Shown in pieces: positions 1,180-8,973 of a stretch of 32,000 bases of DNA. The translations under genes were made by a program, and so were the position numbers. Within the stretch, counting starts at the first letter, position 1; the number at the start of each line of letters is the position of its first letter. This DNA is from Candidatus Heimdallarchaeota archaeon B3_Heim. Its GTDB lineage: Archaea; Asgardarchaeota; Heimdallarchaeia; Hodarchaeales; Hodarchaeaceae. The stretch spans positions 1 through 32,000 of the forward strand of contig NJBF01000022.1 of the NCBI GenBank assembly GCA_003144275.1, given 5' to 3'. The notes below the pieces were generated by a model. That model ran no database searches, was not told where the DNA came from, and saw nothing but the letters and a program-made list of their open reading frames with translations.

Positions 1180-3270
1180 GTGCCTATAGAAAAAAATTTT
1201 CCTGTTGCATCTATTCAAGAAATTGCAAAGGTTGAGTCGCAAAGACGCCAATTCTATCGACCGATTTACTCAATTCACAAATCATGGGCACGAAGACCAG
1301 GATCAACGTTTCGAGCAATAGGATTAGCTCAATTTTCAGATACTCACTTATTTAGCTCTACAGAAGATGACGAAGGAGCATTCTATAGAAATCATAATTT
1401 TTCCGGAAAAATTGTCTTGGATCCCTTCTGTGGAGGAGGAACAAGCCTGATTGAGCTTAATAGATTGGGGGTAAAATCTATTGGGATTGATCTAAATCCT
1501 GTTGCTTGGTTCACAACAAAAAAGGAGCTTGATAGCTTAAACAAAGAAAAATTCAACCAAAAAATAACCTGGATTTTTACCCACGTGGGAAAACGAATTA
1601 AAGAGTTCTATCAGACAAAATGTTCTGAATGTGGATCTCATCACGCAGACATTATGTATACATTTTGGGTTCGTACGATACAATGCCCTAGTTGCCAATC
1701 GAATGAGGATTTATTCAAATATTACATCATAGGGAAGAAGCAACGCAAGAGTCTAGAAACATTAGTAATTTGTCCAGAATGTGATATGTTGTTTTCCACT
1801 AGAGAGGATCTCTCTTCTCAAAGTACTTGTCTCAATTGTGAAACAAAGTTCATCCCCCAAAAGGGGAACTGTAAGAAGAAGATATTCACGTGTACAAAGT
1901 GTGAAAGTGAATTCCGGTTAGTGGATATAGTAAAGGAAAATGTTCAATCTCTCTCATCAAGACAGATTGCCATTGAATTTTATTGTAAAACGTGTAGGTA
2001 CAGAGGATACAAATCGGTGGATGAAGAGGATATTAAAAATTATAATAAAATCGTAGATTCATTTGAAGAGCAAAAAGAGAGTTTACCATATCCAAGAGAG
2101 CTAATTCCTGAAAGCGGGTCAAATGTAAAAAATCTAATCAACTACGGCTTTAAGACTTTCGCATCCTTATTCAATCCTCGACAATTATTTAGCCTAAGTT
2201 TACTTCTAGAAACCATCTTATTAATTAAAGATCAAAATTTAAAAGAATTTTTTGTTTGTGCCCTTTCTAGTTGCTTGGAATTTCATACCGTGCTCTCTCC
2301 ATATAATTATACCATGAAACAAATTGTTAATGTTTTTAATTTTCAATCATTCCTTGTTCCTTTGCAGTATGTCGAGAATAACGTCTGGGGAACTGATAAG
2401 GGTAATGGAACATTCATCACTTATCTAGAAAAGATAAAAAGAGCAAAAGAATATTGTGAAGCCCCATTTGAGATCAGAATCCAAGAGAATCGAATTACTC
2501 GCGTACCTATTCCTGGTGACCGAATCCATGCTAAGATACTTGAAAATTTTGATCAACTTAAAGAGAGTGTCAACGCTGACTCTTTGTTGATTGCAGGTAC
2601 GTCCATTAACCTGATGAAGTATGGTATTCCTGATCAATCTGTCGATTTAGTCTTGACTGATCCACCATACTTTGATTATATACAATATAGCGAATTAGCA
2701 AATTTTTTCTATGTGTGGTTGCGGTTAGCTTTAAAAGAAACATATTCATGGTTTGAATCTTCCACTATCATTAGTGAAGAAGAAATTGGATTACAAAAAG
2801 ATGATTTAATATTTGTTTCTCAATTAATTAAGGTCTTTAGAGAATGTCGTCGGGTATTAAAAGATAAATCTCCCTTAATATTCACCTTCCATCATTCTAA
2901 TCCGAAAGCATGGACCTTAATACTTAAAGCTTTAAATGAAAGCCAGTTTCTACTCAAAGCAGCCTTCCCTGTAATTAGCGAATTTCGTGCCCGACCCGTC
3001 ACAGGGAGTAATTTCGATATAATTCTAGTAGCTAGAAAAACAACAGAAGATGATACTCCAGTCACAGTGGATACATTTACCTCAATAGAGGAGGAAATCA
3101 AAGTAAAATTTCAGAAATTTTCAGATAAATATGGAAAAAGGAAAGAGGGAGAGTGGGAGAAATTATTTGCAGAAATTTTACCATTACTATCATTTTATTT
3201 ACTACACGGTACTGAAAATGATCTAAAAAAAACTTTGGCCAAACTATTTCAAATGAAGAAATTGTTATAA
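1180..3270 (+). CDS. DUF1156/COG1743-type SAM-dependent amino (N6-adenine-type) DNA methyltransferase with Zn ribbons, paralog 1
   Basis: N-terminal IEKNFP...HKSWARRP (DUF1156-like), motif I LDPFCGGGT, six CxxC pairs and motif IV LTDPPYFDY. GTG start with AGGAG at 1167-1171. Confidence 0.85.
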   Translation: MPIEKNFPVASIQEIAKVESQRRQFYRPIYSIHKSWARRPGSTFRAIGLAQFSDTHLFSSTEDDEGAFYRNHNFSGKIVLDPFCGGGTSLIELNRLGVKSIGIDLNPVAWFTTKKELDSLNKEKFNQKITWIFTHVGKRIKEFYQTKCSECGSHHADIMYTFWVRTIQCPSCQSNEDLFKYYIIGKKQRKSLETLVICPECDMLFSTREDLSSQSTCLNCETKFIPQKGNCKKKIFTCTKCESEFRLVDIVKENVQSLSSRQIAIEFYCKTCRYRGYKSVDEEDIKNYNKIVDSFEEQKESLPYPRELIPESGSNVKNLINYGFKTFASLFNPRQLFSLSLLLETILLIKDQNLKEFFVCALSSCLEFHTVLSPYNYTMKQIVNVFNFQSFLVPLQYVENNVWGTDKGNGTFITYLEKIKRAKEYCEAPFEIRIQENRITRVPIPGDRIHAKILENFDQLKESVNADSLLIAGTSINLMKYGIPDQSVDLVLTDPPYFDYIQYSELANFFYVWLRLALKETYSWFESSTIISEEEIGLQKDDLIFVSQLIKVFRECRRVLKDKSPLIFTFHHSNPKAWTLILKALNESQFLLKAAFPVISEFRARPVTGSNFDIILVARKTTEDDTPVTVDTFTSIEEEIKVKFQKFSDKYGKRKEGEWEKLFAEILPLLSFYLLHGTENDLKKTLAKLFQMKKLL

Positions 3271-3317
3271 CCTCCCCCCTTAAAAGAAAAGAGCAAGTTA
3301 AAAGGTCAATCGCTAAT

Positions 3318-3323
3318 GGAGGT
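3318..3323 (+). promoter_or_regulatory. Shine-Dalgarno GGAGGT for thymidine kinase
   Basis: GGAGGT lies 8 nt upstream of the TTG at 3332. Confidence 0.6.
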
Positions 3324-3331
3324 CATATTTA

Positions 3332-3940
3332 TTGCCAGAAATCTATACACCTGGATATCTCGAAGCAATCTTCGGACCGATGAAATCTGGGAAAAGTGAA
3401 TATTTAATTCGTATGTTCAACGAGTTACGGTATTCAGATATTAAAGGTATTGTATTTAAACCAGCTGTCAACACCCGAGAGCCTGGAATTGCGTCGAGGG
3501 GTAGTGATATGCAGCTAGAAGCAATTATAATAGATGAAAAATATCCTGAAAAAATATTGTACCATTTAGAGACTCTAGAATGTAAATTCGTTGGAATTGA
3601 TGAAGCTCAATTCTTTACAGATAATCTAGTTGATGTTGTAGAAGATTTGATCAAAAAAGAATATCATGTCATTGTTTGTGGATTATTATTGAGTTTTCGC
3701 GGAGAACCATTTGGACCAATGCCCTCGTTAGTAGGAAGAGCAAATCACGTGACTCGACTCACTGCAATATGTGAATATCCAAACTGCAATCATTGGGCCG
3801 TCCTTACTCAGCGACTGATAGATGGAAAACCCAGTCCTTATGACAGTCCGCTAGTCTTAATTGAAAAATCAGGACAATCAGATAATTATGAGCCAAGATG
3901 CGTAAATCACCACCAAGTACCCAAGAAATCCAAAACTTGA
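3332..3940 (+). CDS. tdk: Thymidine kinase (TK1/bacterial type)
   Basis: Walker A GPMKSGKS, Walker B VGIDEAQFF, GLxxSFRGEPF, and a Zn/lasso region LTAICEYPNC...YEPRCVNHH. Confidence 0.93.
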   Translation: MPEIYTPGYLEAIFGPMKSGKSEYLIRMFNELRYSDIKGIVFKPAVNTREPGIASRGSDMQLEAIIIDEKYPEKILYHLETLECKFVGIDEAQFFTDNLVDVVEDLIKKEYHVIVCGLLLSFRGEPFGPMPSLVGRANHVTRLTAICEYPNCNHWAVLTQRLIDGKPSPYDSPLVLIEKSGQSDNYEPRCVNHHQVPKKSKT

Positions 3941-6060
3941 TCCAAGAGAAAGAAATCGAAAAAGAATTTCCCTTCTCTCAAGTCAGTGAGATTGCTAATC
4001 GCGAAAGCAATGCAAAGAGGTACTATCGTCCAATCTTAACTCTTCATAAATGGTTTGCCCGTAGACTAGGATCTGTTTTTCGCTCTATATTAATATACGC
4101 AAGTATTAAACCACTAGCTCACACTAAAAAAACTGGAGGGGATTCCTTTTGGGATTTATATTTAGAAGATCACTCTTTCTCAAATATGACAGTTCTAGAT
4201 CCTTTTATGGGGGGTGGGACTACTGTTGTCGAGGCGTTGAGATTGGGTTATGCTAAAGTCATTGGAGGAGATTTAAATCCCGTTGCATGGTTTACTGTCA
4301 AAAAGGAAATAGAAGATGTAGAAATAGATTTACTACAGAAAGAATTTGATAATATTTCAAAAAATATTAAGCTAGATATTCAGCGATACTATAAATCCCA
4401 ATGTTCATTTTGTTCTAGCATTGCTGATGTCATGTATTATTTCTGGATCAAAGAAATTAAATGTGAAAAATGTCAACATAATATTCCGCTATTTCGTAGT
4501 TTTCTCTTTGCAGATAATCGAAAAGATGCAACAACGCAGCATGTAATTTGCCCTGAATGCAATCAATTATTTTTAACTGATAGAAAGTCTAGATGTTTGT
4601 GTCCCAAGTGCTCAACAAGATTTGAAGCATCAGATTTTGTAGTAAAAAGGGGCCGCTATTTCTGTCCTTCATGTGAACACACAGGACGAATAGTTAATGT
4701 AAATGAGAGTCAAGGAAAGCCTACTGAAAGACTTTATGCTCTTGAATTCTACTGTTCTGAATGTAAAGTACGAGGATATAAAACGGCTAATAAAGAGGAT
4801 TTTGAACTATATAAGCATGCAGAATCAGAATTTGATTCATTACATGCCGTCTTACCTCTACCACAGCAAAAAATACCCCTTGGAGCAAAGACTCAAGAAT
4901 TGTTGAATCATAGGATTACTTATTTTACTGATATGTATAATAAACGACAGCTTTTATCATTAGGTAAACTATTGCAAGCTATACTTGACATAGTAGATCC
5001 AAATATTAGGGAATTTTTGCTTATAACTTTTTCTACAGCTCTAGAATATAACAATCTATTATGTGAATACCATCGAAAAAATCATTATGTCTACAACTTA
5101 TTCAGAAAACATGCATACCCAGCTACTTTAAATCCATGCGAAAACAATCCATGGGGAGCACGTTATGGAACAGGGACTTTCAAGAATTTTCTTAAGAAGA
5201 TGATAAAGGTTAAATTGTATTCAAAGGCCCCTTACGAGGTGTACATTGATTCTTCTGGAAAACCAGCTCGAAAACAAATGAACCATCCAATTGTTGCTAA
5301 AGTAAATTTTAATTCTTCAACTATTGATTCCTCAGTTAACTCCAAACTTGTTCATTTATATTGTCATTCATCATCCAAAATTCCCCTATCTGAAAAATCT
5401 ATTGATCTCGTTGTTACTGATCCCCCGTATTACGATAATGTACAATATGCAGAGCTGGCTGATTTCTACTATGTATGGCTGAGATTGGGTTTACAAGAAT
5501 CATACCCATGGTTTGTGCCAGAATATTCACCCAAAGATACTGAAATTGTGAAGAATGTGAAGAGGGGTAAATCAGGTGAACAATATCAAGAAGAACTTAC
5601 AGCGGTTTTTCGAGAAATCTCAAGAGTTATGAAAGATGATGGCTTATTTATCTTTACATTCCATCATAAAGAATTGGATGCTTGGATTATATTAATCAAT
5701 AGTCTGATACAGCAAAATTTCATAATAAAAAGTATTTATCCAGTCCATTCAGAGATGAAAACAAGCACTCAGATTCGAGGAACTAAAAGTATCGGAATAG
5801 ATGTAATATTTGTTTGTAGAAAGCATTTAGATGAGGTTTTGACAAAAGAATGGACTGAGATTCTCAAAAAAGCAAAAAGTGAGATAAATGAGAAGTTGAG
5901 TATTTTACATGATACAATTAAGGATCTGTCAGAAATTGACTGTTTTGTTCTTAAAATGGGTGTAGGACTCAAATATTACACTCAATATCACCGTTCTATT
6001 AAATCAAGGGGGGAGAAAGTTTCAATTAAAGACGTATTAGAAAATTTCTCTCAAGATTAA
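3937..6060 (+). CDS. DUF1156/COG1743-type amino DNA methyltransferase with Zn ribbons, paralog 2
   Basis: IEKEFP...HKWFARRL, motif I LDPFMGGGTT, six CxxC pairs and motif IV VTDPPYYDN. The track starts at ATG 3898. An in-frame TTG at 3937 overlaps the tdk stop (TTGA) and aligns better with the N-terminus of paralog 1. Confidence 0.85.
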   Translation: MIQEKEIEKEFPFSQVSEIANRESNAKRYYRPILTLHKWFARRLGSVFRSILIYASIKPLAHTKKTGGDSFWDLYLEDHSFSNMTVLDPFMGGGTTVVEALRLGYAKVIGGDLNPVAWFTVKKEIEDVEIDLLQKEFDNISKNIKLDIQRYYKSQCSFCSSIADVMYYFWIKEIKCEKCQHNIPLFRSFLFADNRKDATTQHVICPECNQLFLTDRKSRCLCPKCSTRFEASDFVVKRGRYFCPSCEHTGRIVNVNESQGKPTERLYALEFYCSECKVRGYKTANKEDFELYKHAESEFDSLHAVLPLPQQKIPLGAKTQELLNHRITYFTDMYNKRQLLSLGKLLQAILDIVDPNIREFLLITFSTALEYNNLLCEYHRKNHYVYNLFRKHAYPATLNPCENNPWGARYGTGTFKNFLKKMIKVKLYSKAPYEVYIDSSGKPARKQMNHPIVAKVNFNSSTIDSSVNSKLVHLYCHSSSKIPLSEKSIDLVVTDPPYYDNVQYAELADFYYVWLRLGLQESYPWFVPEYSPKDTEIVKNVKRGKSGEQYQEELTAVFREISRVMKDDGLFIFTFHHKELDAWIILINSLIQQNFIIKSIYPVHSEMKTSTQIRGTKSIGIDVIFVCRKHLDEVLTKEWTEILKKAKSEINEKLSILHDTIKDLSEIDCFVLKMGVGLKYYTQYHRSIKSRGEKVSIKDVLENFSQD

Positions 6061-6066
6061 TTCATT

Positions 6067-6828
6067 TTAATTCTTATCATATATCCATCGTGTTAAATAC
6101 ATGAAAGGTGTATCGATTACTCCTAAGAACCATTTGATAGCAACTTGGCCGAGAATTAACTCCAAGACGAAACCAATGTCATTTGGTTGTATTGCTGTAT
6201 CAATGAATCCTTGAATAATGGGAAAGAAATAGAATGCCAGTGGGACAAAAATTATCGAATCGAGACCTAAGCTGAGTATATCGCTAAAAACGTTTCGAAT
6301 CCAAAGATATTTCCACCAATCATCATCGTTTTGAGTTCTGTTTCGTATCCACTCCCTTATATTGTCATAAATCCAAGCATCGAATCTTTCACTAATAAGA
6401 AAGCTTGTCCAAGATGCAAGAGTAATGGCTGGTATAATTGCAAACCCAGAAAACGGATCTGGACCGTCGGCTACAGGCAAATATACTGCAAAAATTATGA
6501 AAATAACCATCAAAATCTGACTGACTAATCCAATCCATATCATATTGTAGACAGCTTGCCTACCGAATTTCTCATTCACCATATCAGTGATTTGCAGGGT
6601 AAATGGGAAGACTATCACTCCTACTGGTGCATATACTACACCGAGTAAAATGAAGTCAAGGTTAAATACAGCTATTTTCGTAGCAAAGAATTGAGCAAGT
6701 GTAAGAAAGAGAATGTAACTTGCTAACAATCCATAATATGAATTTGTTATCACTGTGTGTTTTGCAACTATATATGTAAATATTCCAAGTGTTATAAAGA
6801 TACCAATTGAGATTATCAATGTTTCCAA
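6067..6828 (-). CDS. Queuosine precursor (preQ0/preQ1) transporter, YhhQ/VUT family
   Basis: Multi-TM protein with family-like segments ATKIAVF, FPFTLQITDMVNEKFGRQAV, ASWTSFLISERFDAWIY and WIRNVFSDILSLGLDSIIF. Confidence 0.85.
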   Translation of the reverse strand: METLIISIGIFITLGIFTYIVAKHTVITNSYYGLLASYILFLTLAQFFATKIAVFNLDFILLGVVYAPVGVIVFPFTLQITDMVNEKFGRQAVYNMIWIGLVSQILMVIFIIFAVYLPVADGPDPFSGFAIIPAITLASWTSFLISERFDAWIYDNIREWIRNRTQNDDDWWKYLWIRNVFSDILSLGLDSIIFVPLAFYFFPIIQGFIDTAIQPNDIGFVLELILGQVAIKWFLGVIDTPFMYLTRWIYDKN

Positions 6829-6872
6829 GATTTTCCCGCTCCATATTATTCTGATTTCGAAGGTGAATCGTG

Positions 6873-7061
6873 TTATTTTAATTTAGGCTGAGCTTCAATT
6901 CCTCTTCCATGACGATTATCAATTTCATCTAGAGAATCTAATAACTTACGTAATGCAGCACGAATGGCATCACTAAGGCTTACAAATTTCTTATCGGTTC
7001 CAATATGGAGTTTAAGATCATCCAGTATGTGTTGTGGGACTTCGACTGATATTTTTGTCAT
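6873..7061 (-). CDS. Ribbon-helix-helix (CopG/Arc/MetJ-type) DNA-binding protein
   Basis: 62 aa. N-terminal strand KISVEVP, helix QHILDDLK and second helix SLSDAIRAALRKLL. Confidence 0.8.
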   Translation of the reverse strand: MTKISVEVPQHILDDLKLHIGTDKKFVSLSDAIRAALRKLLDSLDEIDNRHGRGIEAQPKLK

Positions 7062-7217
7062 TTGAGAACTATTCCGATAAAATTATTTCAGAGGATATTC
7101 ACTGAGGAGGATTGAAGGAGGGTTGAGAGAGGAATAAAAATCCATGGGAACATATGGGTTATAACCACAATTAGCTAAGTAGAAATAATTACTTCGAGAA
7201 GGTTAGTAATTTTTCCG

Positions 7218-7661
7218 TTAGTGGATATATTTACCTTCTACATAATTTTTCCAGTCAATGTGGACCTTTTGAGGAATGAAATCTAATTCCTCAACTTGAC
7301 TTAATCTCACTCTAAGTTCAGATAGTTCTGTAACTAAATGTCTCATTGCAACGTCAAATTCTTTAATCAAATACACATCAACTAATTCAGGCGCTTCATG
7401 AAAAATTTCTAGTCTAGCTTCGGGAATGTATATTATACCCTTTCTTACAAGTTCAAATATTTGCTCTAGAAGACGCGTCGCATCTTTTAATGATGAAATA
7501 CCTAAAAGAGAAAGTAATAAATTTAAAGTTTGTCGTTCTGTATGTCTAAAAACGGAAACAATCATCACTTGCCACGCGATAATCTCTAGTTGAGCTTCTG
7601 AGTCATGACTAGACATACAAATCAAAACACCATTTCTTACTATAAGAATCTGACTAGACAA
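7218..7661 (-). CDS. Hypothetical protein, possible winged-helix-like segment
   Basis: 147-aa ORF with protein-like composition. The segment LLEQIFELVRKGIIYIP resembles a wHTH recognition helix plus wing. The start could be the internal MSSHDSEAQ. Confidence 0.6.
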   Translation of the reverse strand: MSSQILIVRNGVLICMSSHDSEAQLEIIAWQVMIVSVFRHTERQTLNLLLSLLGISSLKDATRLLEQIFELVRKGIIYIPEARLEIFHEAPELVDVYLIKEFDVAMRHLVTELSELRVRLSQVEELDFIPQKVHIDWKNYVEGKYIH

Positions 7662-7692
7662 ATCATCCCAAAATGTTTATCGTTCCCTAACC

Positions 7693-7703
7693 TTGCCCGA
7701 CAA
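7693..7703. promoter_or_regulatory. Imperfect palindrome TTGCC-C-GACAA (candidate operator, copy 1)
   Basis: One mismatch to TTGTC-N-GACAA, upstream of the 7218-7661 ORF. Confidence 0.35.
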
Positions 7704-7899
7704 TTTAACGTTCGAAGGAAAGGAGGAGCAATTAATTATTGGATGATTAGGGATTTATTAACAATTCGTTTTGGGAATGACTCAGAAGTTTGAATCAACG
7801 GACTTAGTAAAATATCCATTGTGAGTGATAAACAGATTATCTGATGATCATAAATTTATTATAATCAAATACTGTAAAGAGAAGTTTGTATGATCATTT

Positions 7900-7910
7900 T
7901 TGTCCGACAA
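7900..7910. promoter_or_regulatory. Perfect palindrome TTGTC-C-GACAA (candidate operator, copy 2)
   Basis: Read directly from the sequence. The arms are identical to those of the copy at 8226-8236. Confidence 0.45.
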
Positions 7911-8225
7911 GGCAATATTTCTCGTATTCGCTGACCTCTCTCTCTTACGATCTTAAAAGGCCTCCCTCCCTTACTTCTTCAACCCCGAGGTGATGCCAAA
8001 AAATTTTCTTAATTCTTAGGTCATATTCCCTTGTAACTACGTTAGACGAGTTACCCGTCAAAGGCAAGAGAAGAATGGCAAAAACTGGTGGAAGATCATT
8101 GGTGTTTGGGATATCACAGGTAGGTTTGTCTCAAGTAGTCCCTCGAAAGCTATCTCTCCTTGGGAGCTAGTTTTTTCCGGATAGTGGATGTGTGACTCAT
8201 CCTGTCCAGAATTCTTTTTAAAGAG

Positions 8226-8236
8226 TTGTCTGACAA
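8226..8236. promoter_or_regulatory. Perfect palindrome TTGTC-T-GACAA (candidate operator, copy 3)
   Basis: Ends 8 nt before the likely ATG (8245) of the endonuclease III-related gene. Confidence 0.45.
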
Positions 8237-8244
8237 AATTAGTC

Positions 8245-8973
8245 ATGGAATTAAATGATCTATATCAGTTACTATCCATATCCTATAATCGGATCGATCC
8301 ACATCACGAGACTTGGATGCTATGGCTCAAGAAAAAGTCAGAAGAAGAATTATTCGAAGTAGCAATTGGAACCATTCTTGTCCAAAATACAAATTGGCTA
8401 AATGTGGATTTAGCAATTTCAAATCTCTTTAAGCATAATATTACTTCTTTTAAGCGTCTCAAGGCTGTTAAATGTGCACAACTTGAGGTGTTAATACGAC
8501 CAGCAGGATTCTATAAGCAAAAAGCACGGTCTCTATATTCATTAGCTGAGATTTTTCTTGATTATTCCAAAGGATCAAAAACCCCATCTAGAAATGCTTT
8601 GTTGCGAATAAAGGGAGTTGGGAAGGAAACAGCTGATTCTTTAAGAGTATACTGCTTTTATGATGCAGTACCAATTGTTGGAACTTATACAAGGAGACTT
8701 TTTGCCAGGATGTTTGGTAAGGTCAATTACTTGAAAGAAAAATATGAAAATATTCAGGAAATAATCTCTAACTCTCTCGACCAAGATTACTACGTATTAG
8801 GGAAATTTCATGCCTTAATTGTCAGTCACTGTCAACAATTCTGTCAGAAAATTCTTCCTCTTTGTGAGCAATGCCCGTTAGAAAGTCAGTGTATTTATGG
8901 ACAGTACCACCAAACACAACCTGAACTCATACAAATCCAAAATACCATTAATAAGCCAAAAAGTGTGAAATGA
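8245..8973 (+). CDS. Endonuclease III-related HhH-GPD protein (COG2231-like) with 4Fe-4S motif
   Basis: AILVQNT-like GTILVQNTNW, HhH LLRIKGVGKETADS and C-x6-C-x2-C-x5-C (CQKILPLCEQCPLESQC). ATG 8245 is preferred over the track start at 8188. Confidence 0.85.
   Translation: MELNDLYQLLSISYNRIDPHHETWMLWLKKKSEEELFEVAIGTILVQNTNWLNVDLAISNLFKHNITSFKRLKAVKCAQLEVLIRPAGFYKQKARSLYSLAEIFLDYSKGSKTPSRNALLRIKGVGKETADSLRVYCFYDAVPIVGTYTRRLFARMFGKVNYLKEKYENIQEIISNSLDQDYYVLGKFHALIVSHCQQFCQKILPLCEQCPLESQCIYGQYHQTQPELIQIQNTINKPKSVK

Follow-up and report, generated by a model that had tools for sequence, protein, structure and literature searches.

What does a thymidine kinase gene do between two methyltransferase genes, and what are the two methyltransferases for? 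The locus that raises this question lies at nucleotides (nt) 1180–6060 of the first 32 000 nt of contig NJBF01000022.1 of Candidatus Heimdallarchaeota archaeon B3_Heim, a member of the Hodarchaeaceae; this whole 32-kb stretch is referred to below as the window. Three open reading frames (ORFs) on the plus strand encode, in order, methyltransferase A, a thymidine kinase (tdk) and methyltransferase B (Table 1). A first-pass annotation of the sequence had proposed that the three genes might form a new module in which DNA modification is coupled to nucleoside salvage, with a chance insertion of tdk as the fallback. The comparisons described here favour, at a probability of roughly 0.65, a different reading, in which A and B are persistent solitary DNA amino-methyltransferases that derive from the DUF1156 defence family, lack its C-terminal extension and its partner genes and have become fixed in the Hodarchaeaceae. 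Both enzymes would depend on S-adenosylmethionine (SAM) and add N6-methyladenine or N4-methylcytosine, and most likely each would methylate a motif of its own on the resident chromosome, with no cognate nuclease involved; tdk, having displaced a PhoU_div/PiT gene pair in one subclade, would have no mechanistic role in methylation.

Family and architecture of the methyltransferases

A and B share 37% identity over 638 amino acids (aa; E 1e-139), and both retain the SAM-binding motif I, the catalytic DPPY and an insert with six CxxC pairs (DPFCGGGT at aa 81, DPPY at aa 494 and CxxC pairs at aa 148–272 in A; DPFMGGGT at aa 101, DPPY at aa 508 and CxxC pairs at aa 169–289 in B), in agreement with their initial description as diverged paralogues with intact motifs. 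Motif I and DPPY are invariant across a 52-sequence alignment. Membership in DUF1156, a family known from defence operons with DUF499 and SNF2 partners, had also been proposed and is supported by the homology of B, by matches to HmaB and by shared motifs. The closest proteins to B in a database search form a clade of ∼720-aa sequences labelled Hodarchaeales, Heimdall or Thor (50–90% identity), beyond which B matches hundreds of ∼900-aa DUF1156 proteins at ∼40% identity over 97–98% of the length (E ∼1e-180). The top PADLOC model is HmaB for both proteins (A 5.9e-27, B 2.4e-38). The Pfam DUF1156 profile (PF06634) scores below threshold (21.1 bits for A and 18.9 bits for B, cut-off 24), and the NCBIfam equivalog NF042963 (anti-phage-associated DUF1156) gives 120.3 bits for A and 125.9 bits for B, short of its cut-off of 1000.

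In the alignment A, B and a third short paralogue, C, are collinear with the long forms as far as the catalytic core extends and lack only the C-terminal ∼150–190 aa. The HKSWARR (A) and HKWFARR (B) segments align with HKWWARR of the long forms, placing the N-terminal DUF1156 helical domain in both proteins, and motif I, DPPY, FTFHH and all 12 cysteines align with bacterial, haloarchaeal and Thor relatives. On sequence comparison, A and B are best described as trimmed members of the DUF1156 (HmaB / BREX-related) methyltransferase family. The six-CxxC insert, noted initially as common to A and B, is not peculiar to them; long-form DUF1156 proteins of bacteria and haloarchaea conserve it too and, since its 12 cysteines are common to the bacterial, haloarchaeal and Thor relatives, it is a family trait. 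A, B and C each have the full set of 12, most of which are missing from the long paralogue D of the same genome.

The AlphaFold2 model of B (pLDDT 89, pTM 0.90) runs from N-terminal helices through Rossmann strands 1–2, a β-rich zinc-ribbon domain (∼166–296) and a helical domain (∼299–445) to the remaining core with DPPY and a short C-terminal helical bundle. Apart from the C-terminal HTH-like triad, which is missing here, this arrangement agrees with published accounts of BREX-related DUF1156 methylases. Each methylase is predicted to have a normal Rossmann core, in which motif I lies on strand 1 and DPPY on strand 4, split by a target-recognition insert of ∼350 aa that would comprise three zinc ribbons and the helical domain. 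A Foldseek search of the PDB with the full-length model of B gave no match at E 0.001 or better, and a profile search of PDB sequences gave only matches at the level of motif I. Circular permutation, as the permuted order of the Pfam N6_N4_Mtase matches might suggest, was rejected; the model and the literature show motif I followed by motif IV with a large insert. Identity among A, B and C is uniform from domain to domain (31–53%) except in the C-terminal helices and offers no clue to divergent specificity.

Distribution and inheritance

An orthologue of B (at least 52% identity) is present in 20 of the 21 other genomes of the GTDB genus to which the window belongs, the exception being a fragmentary 1.4-Mb assembly, and in these genomes A lies on the same contig as B wherever the contigs allow. 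In other families of the class, orthologues of B were found in 0/31, 0/12, 0/3 and 1/12 genomes. The locus has a shared frame, with a minus-strand GNAT acetyltransferase gene, A, B and a minus-strand Vut_1 transporter gene, followed by a 147-aa ORF (orf147), HhH-GPD and tRNA_edit; these flanking genes are syntenic and diverge at similar rates. The GNAT orthologue holds the same divergent upstream position in L011, L012, L016, L022, L052, L059, L103 and L104, and Vut_1 holds the same downstream position in all annotated relatives. The ratio of nonsynonymous to synonymous divergence (dN/dS) against three relatives is 0.13–0.20 for A and 0.08–0.17 for B, similar to that of the flanking genes.

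The genome encodes four family members, A, B, C and D. In a tree of 73 sequences each of these forms a clade with support of 100, and the inner branching of the A and B clades is congruent, the pattern expected of co-divergence with the host. Taken together, the comparisons indicate that the pair is inherited vertically at one fixed site (GNAT–Vut_1) across the genus and family and is under purifying selection. The free tree does not place A and B as sisters: A groups with two short forms from Armatimonadota (support 95, with a long-branch warning), and B belongs, together with long forms and the short forms of Thor genomes, to a group that is unresolved. The approximately unbiased (AU) test does not reject A and B as one clade (p 0.157), nor A, B and C (p 0.185). 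The pair may have arisen by tandem duplication or by separate acquisition.

Paralogue C lies in a second methylase cluster (C30:69838–76060; locus L009:7836–14061) with the order small N6_N4 methylase (minus strand), HAD-IA phosphatase, C, CcrM-like small methylase and Eco57I/TaqI_C methylase (minus strand). The cluster is present in all seven genomes examined (that of the window and G057, G065, G062, G049, G055 and G051); in four genomes a thioredoxin-reductase-like gene is inserted, with a cupin gene in addition in at least one. As candidate nuclease partners these extra ORFs were rejected, being a thioredoxin-reductase-like flavoprotein and a cupin. Likewise, 393-aa ORFs without a Pfam match, found near the second cluster in the genome of the window and near the A/B locus in G061, were considered as a shared partner and proved unrelated to each other.

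Short forms also occur in Thor-type genomes (L027, L029, L032, L037, L039 and L109), where a single one occupies a fixed site near RNA polymerase genes (rpoB), between an SDR or arrestin-like gene and an ECF-type cobalt transporter. Among 81 genomes sampled from that class, 44 have its orthologue (at least 54% identity), and ∼12 of the 44 have a second paralogue of ∼37% identity.

The slot between A and B and the origin of tdk

The interval between A and B is variable. It holds tdk in five genomes (that of the window, G054, G051, G053 and G052), in which B is at least 71% identical. In G057, G061 and at loci L016, L018, L022, L052 and L059 it holds PhoU_div and a PHO4/PiT-family permease, and an A–B spacing of ∼2 kb in 12 genomes is consistent with these two genes. 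Both are present in G059 (L101) together with inserts of 8 kb and 3 kb, and in G048 (L102), the B of which is the earliest branch of the B clade, only 137 nt separate A from B. At L101 (G059:C235, 5070–17058) the ∼8 kb lie between PhoU_div and PHO4 and the ∼3 kb between PHO4 and B, so that the slot behaves as an insertion hotspot.

In most loci lacking tdk an Eco57I/N6_Mtase-type (γ-class) methylase gene lies directly upstream of A and is operonic with the pair; this gene is absent from the genome of the window by tblastn and has been lost there. A tblastn search of the same genome (assembly 94% complete) gave no PhoU_div or PHO4 match, and to judge by this search the subclade seems to have lost the PhoU_div/PHO4 transporter (a PiT-type phosphate or sulfate permease).

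The tdk product matches Pfam TK (PF00265) with 109.2 bits over residues 9–194, that is, over the full-length domain, and scores 171 bits against NCBIfam NF003296, just under the equivalog cut-off of 183 bits. It has the P-loop GPMKSGKS, DEAQFF, and CEYPNC and CVNHH with the C-terminal Cys/His zinc ligands. By its full-length match, P-loop, DEAQFF and zinc ligands it is a Type II (TK1-like) thymidine kinase with no functional peculiarity, and only its chromosomal position is unusual. The gene is single-copy (one tblastn match in the genome), with a dN/dS of 0.05–0.11 against three relatives. Another 11 genomes of the genus have a tdk match outside the slot, nine at 54–65% identity and two at 33%; in the complete genome G057 it is at 4.90 Mb and the methylase pair at 3.76 Mb, more than 1 Mb away. 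The genes that flank tdk in G057 and G061 have orthologues in the genome of the window on contig C93 (94–107 kb), a block from which tdk and its upstream neighbour of 233 aa are missing. Since the ancestral neighbourhood is retained on C93 without tdk, and the slot varies in other genomes, tdk must have relocated into the A–B slot in one subclade. Gene order and sequence together indicate that it is an ordinary housekeeping salvage gene, vertically inherited and moved to its present site.

These observations bear directly on the proposal that thymidine salvage is tied to DNA modification, for instance through the supply of a pyrimidine pool, modified or unmodified. The tight spacing (a 61-nt gap and an overlap of 4 or 43 nt), the persistence of the arrangement in five related genomes under purifying selection and the presence of other phosphate-related genes in methylase clusters (PhoU_div/PiT in the slot and a HAD phosphatase directly upstream of C) speak for such a coupling. 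Its confinement to the one five-genome subclade, the location of tdk elsewhere in its relatives, the ancestral neighbourhood that is identifiable without it in the genome of the window and the equal conservation of A and B with PhoU_div/PiT, large inserts or nothing between them speak against it; moreover, as the only copy in the genome, tdk must serve ordinary salvage. The coupled module is therefore highly improbable. The neighbourhood survey for retention of tdk, which had been named beforehand as the refuting check, went against it: outside the subclade the slot contains PhoU_div and PHO4, inserts or nothing, and tdk belongs to another syntenic block. The fallback of a chance insertion is favoured instead by the variability of the slot and the relocation of tdk. 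DNA modification coupled to tdk would have meant a system of a new kind; comparison of the genomes shows an accident of gene order, and the claim should be withdrawn.

Possible partners elsewhere in the genome

As first annotated, the window contains no nuclease, DUF499 or SNF2 gene detectable by Pfam over its 32 kb, and none was found within 10 kb at any Hodarchaeales or Thor locus examined. The same annotation had allowed that a cognate DUF499/SNF2 locus elsewhere might explain the pair as a standard system. Genes of both kinds do occur elsewhere in the genome, which bears out this possibility in part, but both are unlinked to the pair. A profile search of the genome with PF04465 (DUF499) was negative; BLAST with the DUF499 proteins of related loci found an 866-aa ORF without a Pfam match on contig C23 (29302–31902; L108:9303–11903, minus strand). 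In the ESM Atlas this ORF falls into DUF499 clusters (feature score 0.98, TM 0.71–0.82 over ∼770 residues), and its intact P-loop FGGGKTH aligns with DUF499 proteins. The gene is convergent to uvrC in the genome of the window, G057, G065 and G049, is nearly absent elsewhere in the class and is never linked to any of the four methylases A–D; no match was obtained in G048, G060 and G061, where completeness limits the search. It may represent a domesticated HmaC-like protein linked to excision repair. The protein evolves fast, with 31–35% identity where uvrC has ∼60%.

Contig C37 (5585 bp) carries three ORFs on its minus strand: a zinc-ribbon methylase (at least 627 aa, truncated), a 959-aa SNF2-family helicase and an ORF of at least 282 aa, likewise truncated. 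It is a fragment of a separate helicase–methylase system, possibly DISARM- or Hma-like, cut at both contig ends. The sole NOV_C match in the genome is weak (23.6 bits, contig C57).

With unlinked DUF499 and SNF2 genes in the genome, a dispersed defence system stays alive as an explanation, but the locus is not a standard Hma system. In such an Hma/BREX-related arrangement A, B, C and D would be the modification arm, the DUF499 ATPase and an unrecognized nuclease or helicase would act in trans and tdk would be a passenger. The structural match and intact P-loop of the C23 protein, its range, which is nearly that of the methylases (18/21 in f1, 1/2 in f2 and ∼0 elsewhere), the long-form protein D and the SNF2 gene on C37 are all compatible with this arrangement. 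Known Hma/BREX-related systems, however, are compact operons, and here each component stands alone in a conserved housekeeping site (the DUF499-like gene beside uvrC, D between thioredoxin and TldD genes, A and B between GNAT and Vut_1). A shared range is expected of any family-specific gene, and related genomes are not independent samples. Furthermore, no helicase-nuclease was found apart from the weak NOV_C match on another contig, the SNF2 gene on C37 has its own adjacent methylase, and the C-terminal part trimmed from A, B and C is the one thought to characterize system methylases. A dispersed system is thus unlikely.

Substrate and mode of action

Like catalytic activity and the absence of a restriction partner, the action of A and B on DNA is inferred. 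Three contexts speak for DNA: the long-form relatives lie beside DUF499 and NOV_C genes, Armatimonadota short forms follow a HaeII gene and the pair itself is operonic with an Eco57I-type methylase in relatives. DUF499 is present at 18 long-form DUF1156 loci by BLAST, and the haloarchaeal loci L047, L050, L051 and L058 encode, in order, a NOV_C protein, DUF1156, DUF499 and DUF1156, the two DUF1156 paralogue types forming sister clades. Since these DUF1156 genes flank DUF499, paired paralogues around another gene also exist in canonical systems. In Armatimonadota (L055:2917–6208 and L057:2858–6212) a HaeII-family restriction endonuclease gene (Pfam 1.7e-110) overlaps the start of the short-form methylase, and the L055 and L057 contigs carry no other methylase gene; by analogy, this pairing offers the best contextual evidence in suggesting that short forms act on DNA. 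If a HaeII-like specificity (RGCGCY) is kept in these Armatimonadota, the amino-methylase would have to make N4-methylcytosine.

The alternative that A and B are housekeeping guanine-N2 or adenine-N6 methyltransferases of tRNA or rRNA, descended from the DUF1156 family, accords with their vertical, core-gene-like inheritance, with the position of the Thor orthologue near RNA polymerase genes and with the lack of a demonstrated DNA target for any DUF1156 enzyme. It is nevertheless quite improbable, because only a core of ∼180 residues matches, with no THUMP or other RNA-binding module, because the relatives pair with a HaeII-family endonuclease or DUF499/NOV_C defence genes, and because the clusters of the A/B lineage include DNA-methylase families (Eco57I/N6_Mtase, and CcrM-like N6_N4 around C). 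Absence from most other families of the class would also be unusual for a core RNA-modification enzyme.

A and B could instead be an obligate pair, either a heterodimer whose one subunit would read the site while the other methylates it, as in Type III Mod dimers, or one enzyme for each strand of an asymmetric site, as in Type IIS M1/M2. They are adjacent or nearly so, both are kept wherever the contig allows, catalytic motifs persist in both, the haloarchaeal Hma-like loci also hold two DUF1156 paralogues and in most relatives the third, Eco57I-type methylase precedes them in one operon. Yet the linkage survives the insertion of unrelated genes (0.6, 2 and ∼13 kb), C and D are no less conserved although unlinked, Thor-lineage genomes keep a single short form, and neither A nor B resembles a degenerate subunit, the recognition insert and the catalytic site being complete in each. 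Obligate pairing seems doubtful on this evidence; cooperation between A and B is in any case compatible with solitary DNA methyltransferases.

Several points weigh against the solitary-methyltransferase reading. The literature yielded no experimental demonstration of DNA methylation by any DUF1156 enzyme, and HmaB of Halomonas had no protective effect of the restriction–modification (R-M) type when tested (PMC11232893). Restriction nucleases are hard to recognize by sequence, so that 'orphan' status rests on absence of evidence. A divergent DUF499 ATPase with an intact P-loop is present, unlinked to the pair, in 18 of the 21 genomes of the genus, and a 5.6-kb contig in the genome of the window carries an SNF2 gene accompanied by a methylase of its own. 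Finally, the window begins at a contig end, its first base being the first base of contig C44, and only 1.18 kb lie upstream of A; as the divergent GNAT gene is the upstream neighbour in relatives with long contigs, nothing relevant appears to have been lost there.

Layout of the locus

The co-oriented order of the three genes and the 61-nt gap between A and tdk were confirmed as first described (Table 1). The reported stop/start overlap was found in part: the TTGA at 3937–3940 does span the tdk stop, but its TTG is only one of two candidate starts of B, the other being the ATG at 3898, which is in frame and would make B overlap tdk by 43 nt. The longer frame is kept in the three closest relatives, with overlaps of 34–43 nt.

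Table 1. Features of the methylase locus and the two unlinked paralogues. Positions are those of the window unless a contig is named.
Feature	Position	Strand	Remarks
GNAT acetyltransferase	134–955	−	Pfam Acetyltransf_1 6.5e-19; left boundary of the methylase block
Methyltransferase A	1180–3270	+	Short-form DUF1156-family amino-methyltransferase; 696 aa; GTG start; Pfam N6_N4_Mtase 1.9e-13
A, HKSWARR	1276–1296
A, DPFCGGGT	1420–1443		Motif I
A, six CxxC	1621–1995
A, DPPY	2659–2670		Motif IV
A–tdk spacer	3271–3331	+	61 nt; GGAGG ∼9 nt upstream of the tdk TTG; no long T-run (sequence inspected)
Thymidine kinase (tdk)	3332–3940	+	202 aa; TTG start; Pfam TK 2.7e-31
tdk, P-loop	3374–3397
tdk, DEAQFF	3599–3616
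Methyltransferase B	3898–6060	+	720 aa from ATG 3898; Pfam N6_N4_Mtase 8.6e-16
B, HKWFARR	4045–4065
B, DPFMGGGT	4198–4221		Motif I
B, six CxxC	4402–4764
B, DPPY	5419–5430
Vut_1/queuosine-precursor transporter	6067–6828	−	Pfam Vut_1 3.1e-35; NCBIfam TIGR00697 86 bits; right boundary, convergent
Paralogue C	C30:71364–73505		714 aa; short form
Paralogue D	Contig C100		871 aa; long form; Pfam DUF1156 74 bits; between thioredoxin and TldD genes

The surroundings of the pair in the window are of a housekeeping nature and include, among others, the GNAT acetyltransferase, the Vut_1 transporter, an HhH-GPD glycosylase, a tRNA-editing domain, UvrA and ABC transporters. Positions 6067–8973 encode the Vut_1/YhhQ-type transporter, a 147-aa ORF without an assigned family and the HhH-GPD glycosylase, and the same genes lie downstream of the pair in all relatives. 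Synonymous divergence (dS) from locus L103 (G054), the closest relative of the window, stays at 0.08–0.10 in GNAT, A, tdk and HhH-GPD but reaches 0.30 in B and 0.59 in Vut_1; the rise over positions 3898–6828 suggests a recombination tract across B and Vut_1.

Implications

With the coupled module set aside, the remaining point is modest: a defence-type DUF1156 family has trimmed, partner-less, vertically inherited and core-like descendants in at least two Asgard lineages. The Hodarchaeaceae are among the closest known archaeal relatives of eukaryotes. Hodarchaeales keep several DUF1156-type methylases in two conserved methylase clusters, which predicts a rich and stable methylome in this order, with A and B as candidate enzymes for a future methylome. 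The locus would then be a natural example of defence genes becoming resident epigenetic genes.

A broader proposition, that the Hodarchaeaceae have domesticated a whole Hma/BREX-related toolkit (A, B, C, D and the DUF499 protein beside uvrC) for resident epigenetic or repair-linked DNA marking, with A and B cooperating and the phosphate and nucleotide genes co-regulated, is speculative and rather unlikely. If it were true, the role of the toolkit would be resident marking and not action against viruses, A and B would act as a heterodimer or as one enzyme per strand, and the occurrence of PiT/PhoU_div, tdk and the HAD phosphatase in methylase clusters would reflect shared regulation and not chance.

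Comparison with known systems

The DUF1156 methylase of the Hma and type-1 BREX-related, DUF499-centred systems is HmaB, or BR-MTase (PMC11232893; bioRxiv 10.1101/2025.10.09.681413), and the long forms carry a C-terminal triad of helix–turn–helix (HTH)-like domains (bioRxiv 10.1101/2025.10.09.681413). The literature on DUF1156 yielded no work on trimmed solitary forms, those of Asgard archaea included. A and B resemble HmaB/BR-MTase in being collinear over ∼650 aa (∼40% identity for B), in sharing the helical domain with HKWWARR, motif I, DPPY and FTFHH, and in the recognition insert placed after core strand 2 with six conserved CxxC pairs; Trm14 is the top structural neighbour here, as published for HmaB (PMC11232893). 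They differ in length (∼700 aa against ∼900 aa), the C-terminal ∼150–190 aa that correspond to the region of the HTH-like triad being missing. Unlike the Hma and type-1 BREX-related systems, the locus has no adjacent DUF499 ATPase (HmaC) or SNF2/NOV_C helicase-nuclease (HmaA), and A and B are fixed in a housekeeping neighbourhood, vertically inherited and outside any defence island.

The Armatimonadota pair of HaeII and a short-form methylase is similar in its short architecture (765–788 aa), and its methylases are the nearest tree neighbours of clade A. It differs in that A, B and C have no restriction endonuclease gene within 10 kb; a HaeII-family search of the genome of the window gave no match, but control genomes gave none either.

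In Type IIS and IIG R-M systems an asymmetric site may be served by two methylases that are separate proteins (M1/M2 pairs; Eco57I plus M.Eco57I). The likeness lies in the two or three co-oriented amino-methylases per operon and in the Eco57I-family γ-class methylase upstream of A in relatives. In contrast to these systems, no nuclease domain was detected, and A and B are core and syntenic rather than mobile. The 769-aa Eco57I-like protein of the relatives has only methylase domains by Pfam and NCBIfam, its N-terminal ∼150 aa having no domain assignment, and Pfam found no cognate endonuclease next to A and B, either in the window or in those relatives that have the ancestral-type operon.

The closest parallel in behaviour comes from Halobacteria, in which persistent orphan DNA methyltransferases are reported to be conserved by lineage and R-M genes to be patchy (PMC6471742); conserved orphan methylases are already known in archaea. 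A and B share with those enzymes their presence in 20 of 21 genomes, synteny, purifying selection and the lack of any linked nuclease found. Relative to the orphans described there, they are set apart by their DUF1156-type architecture with a zinc-ribbon insert and by the retention of three short paralogues together with the long form D.

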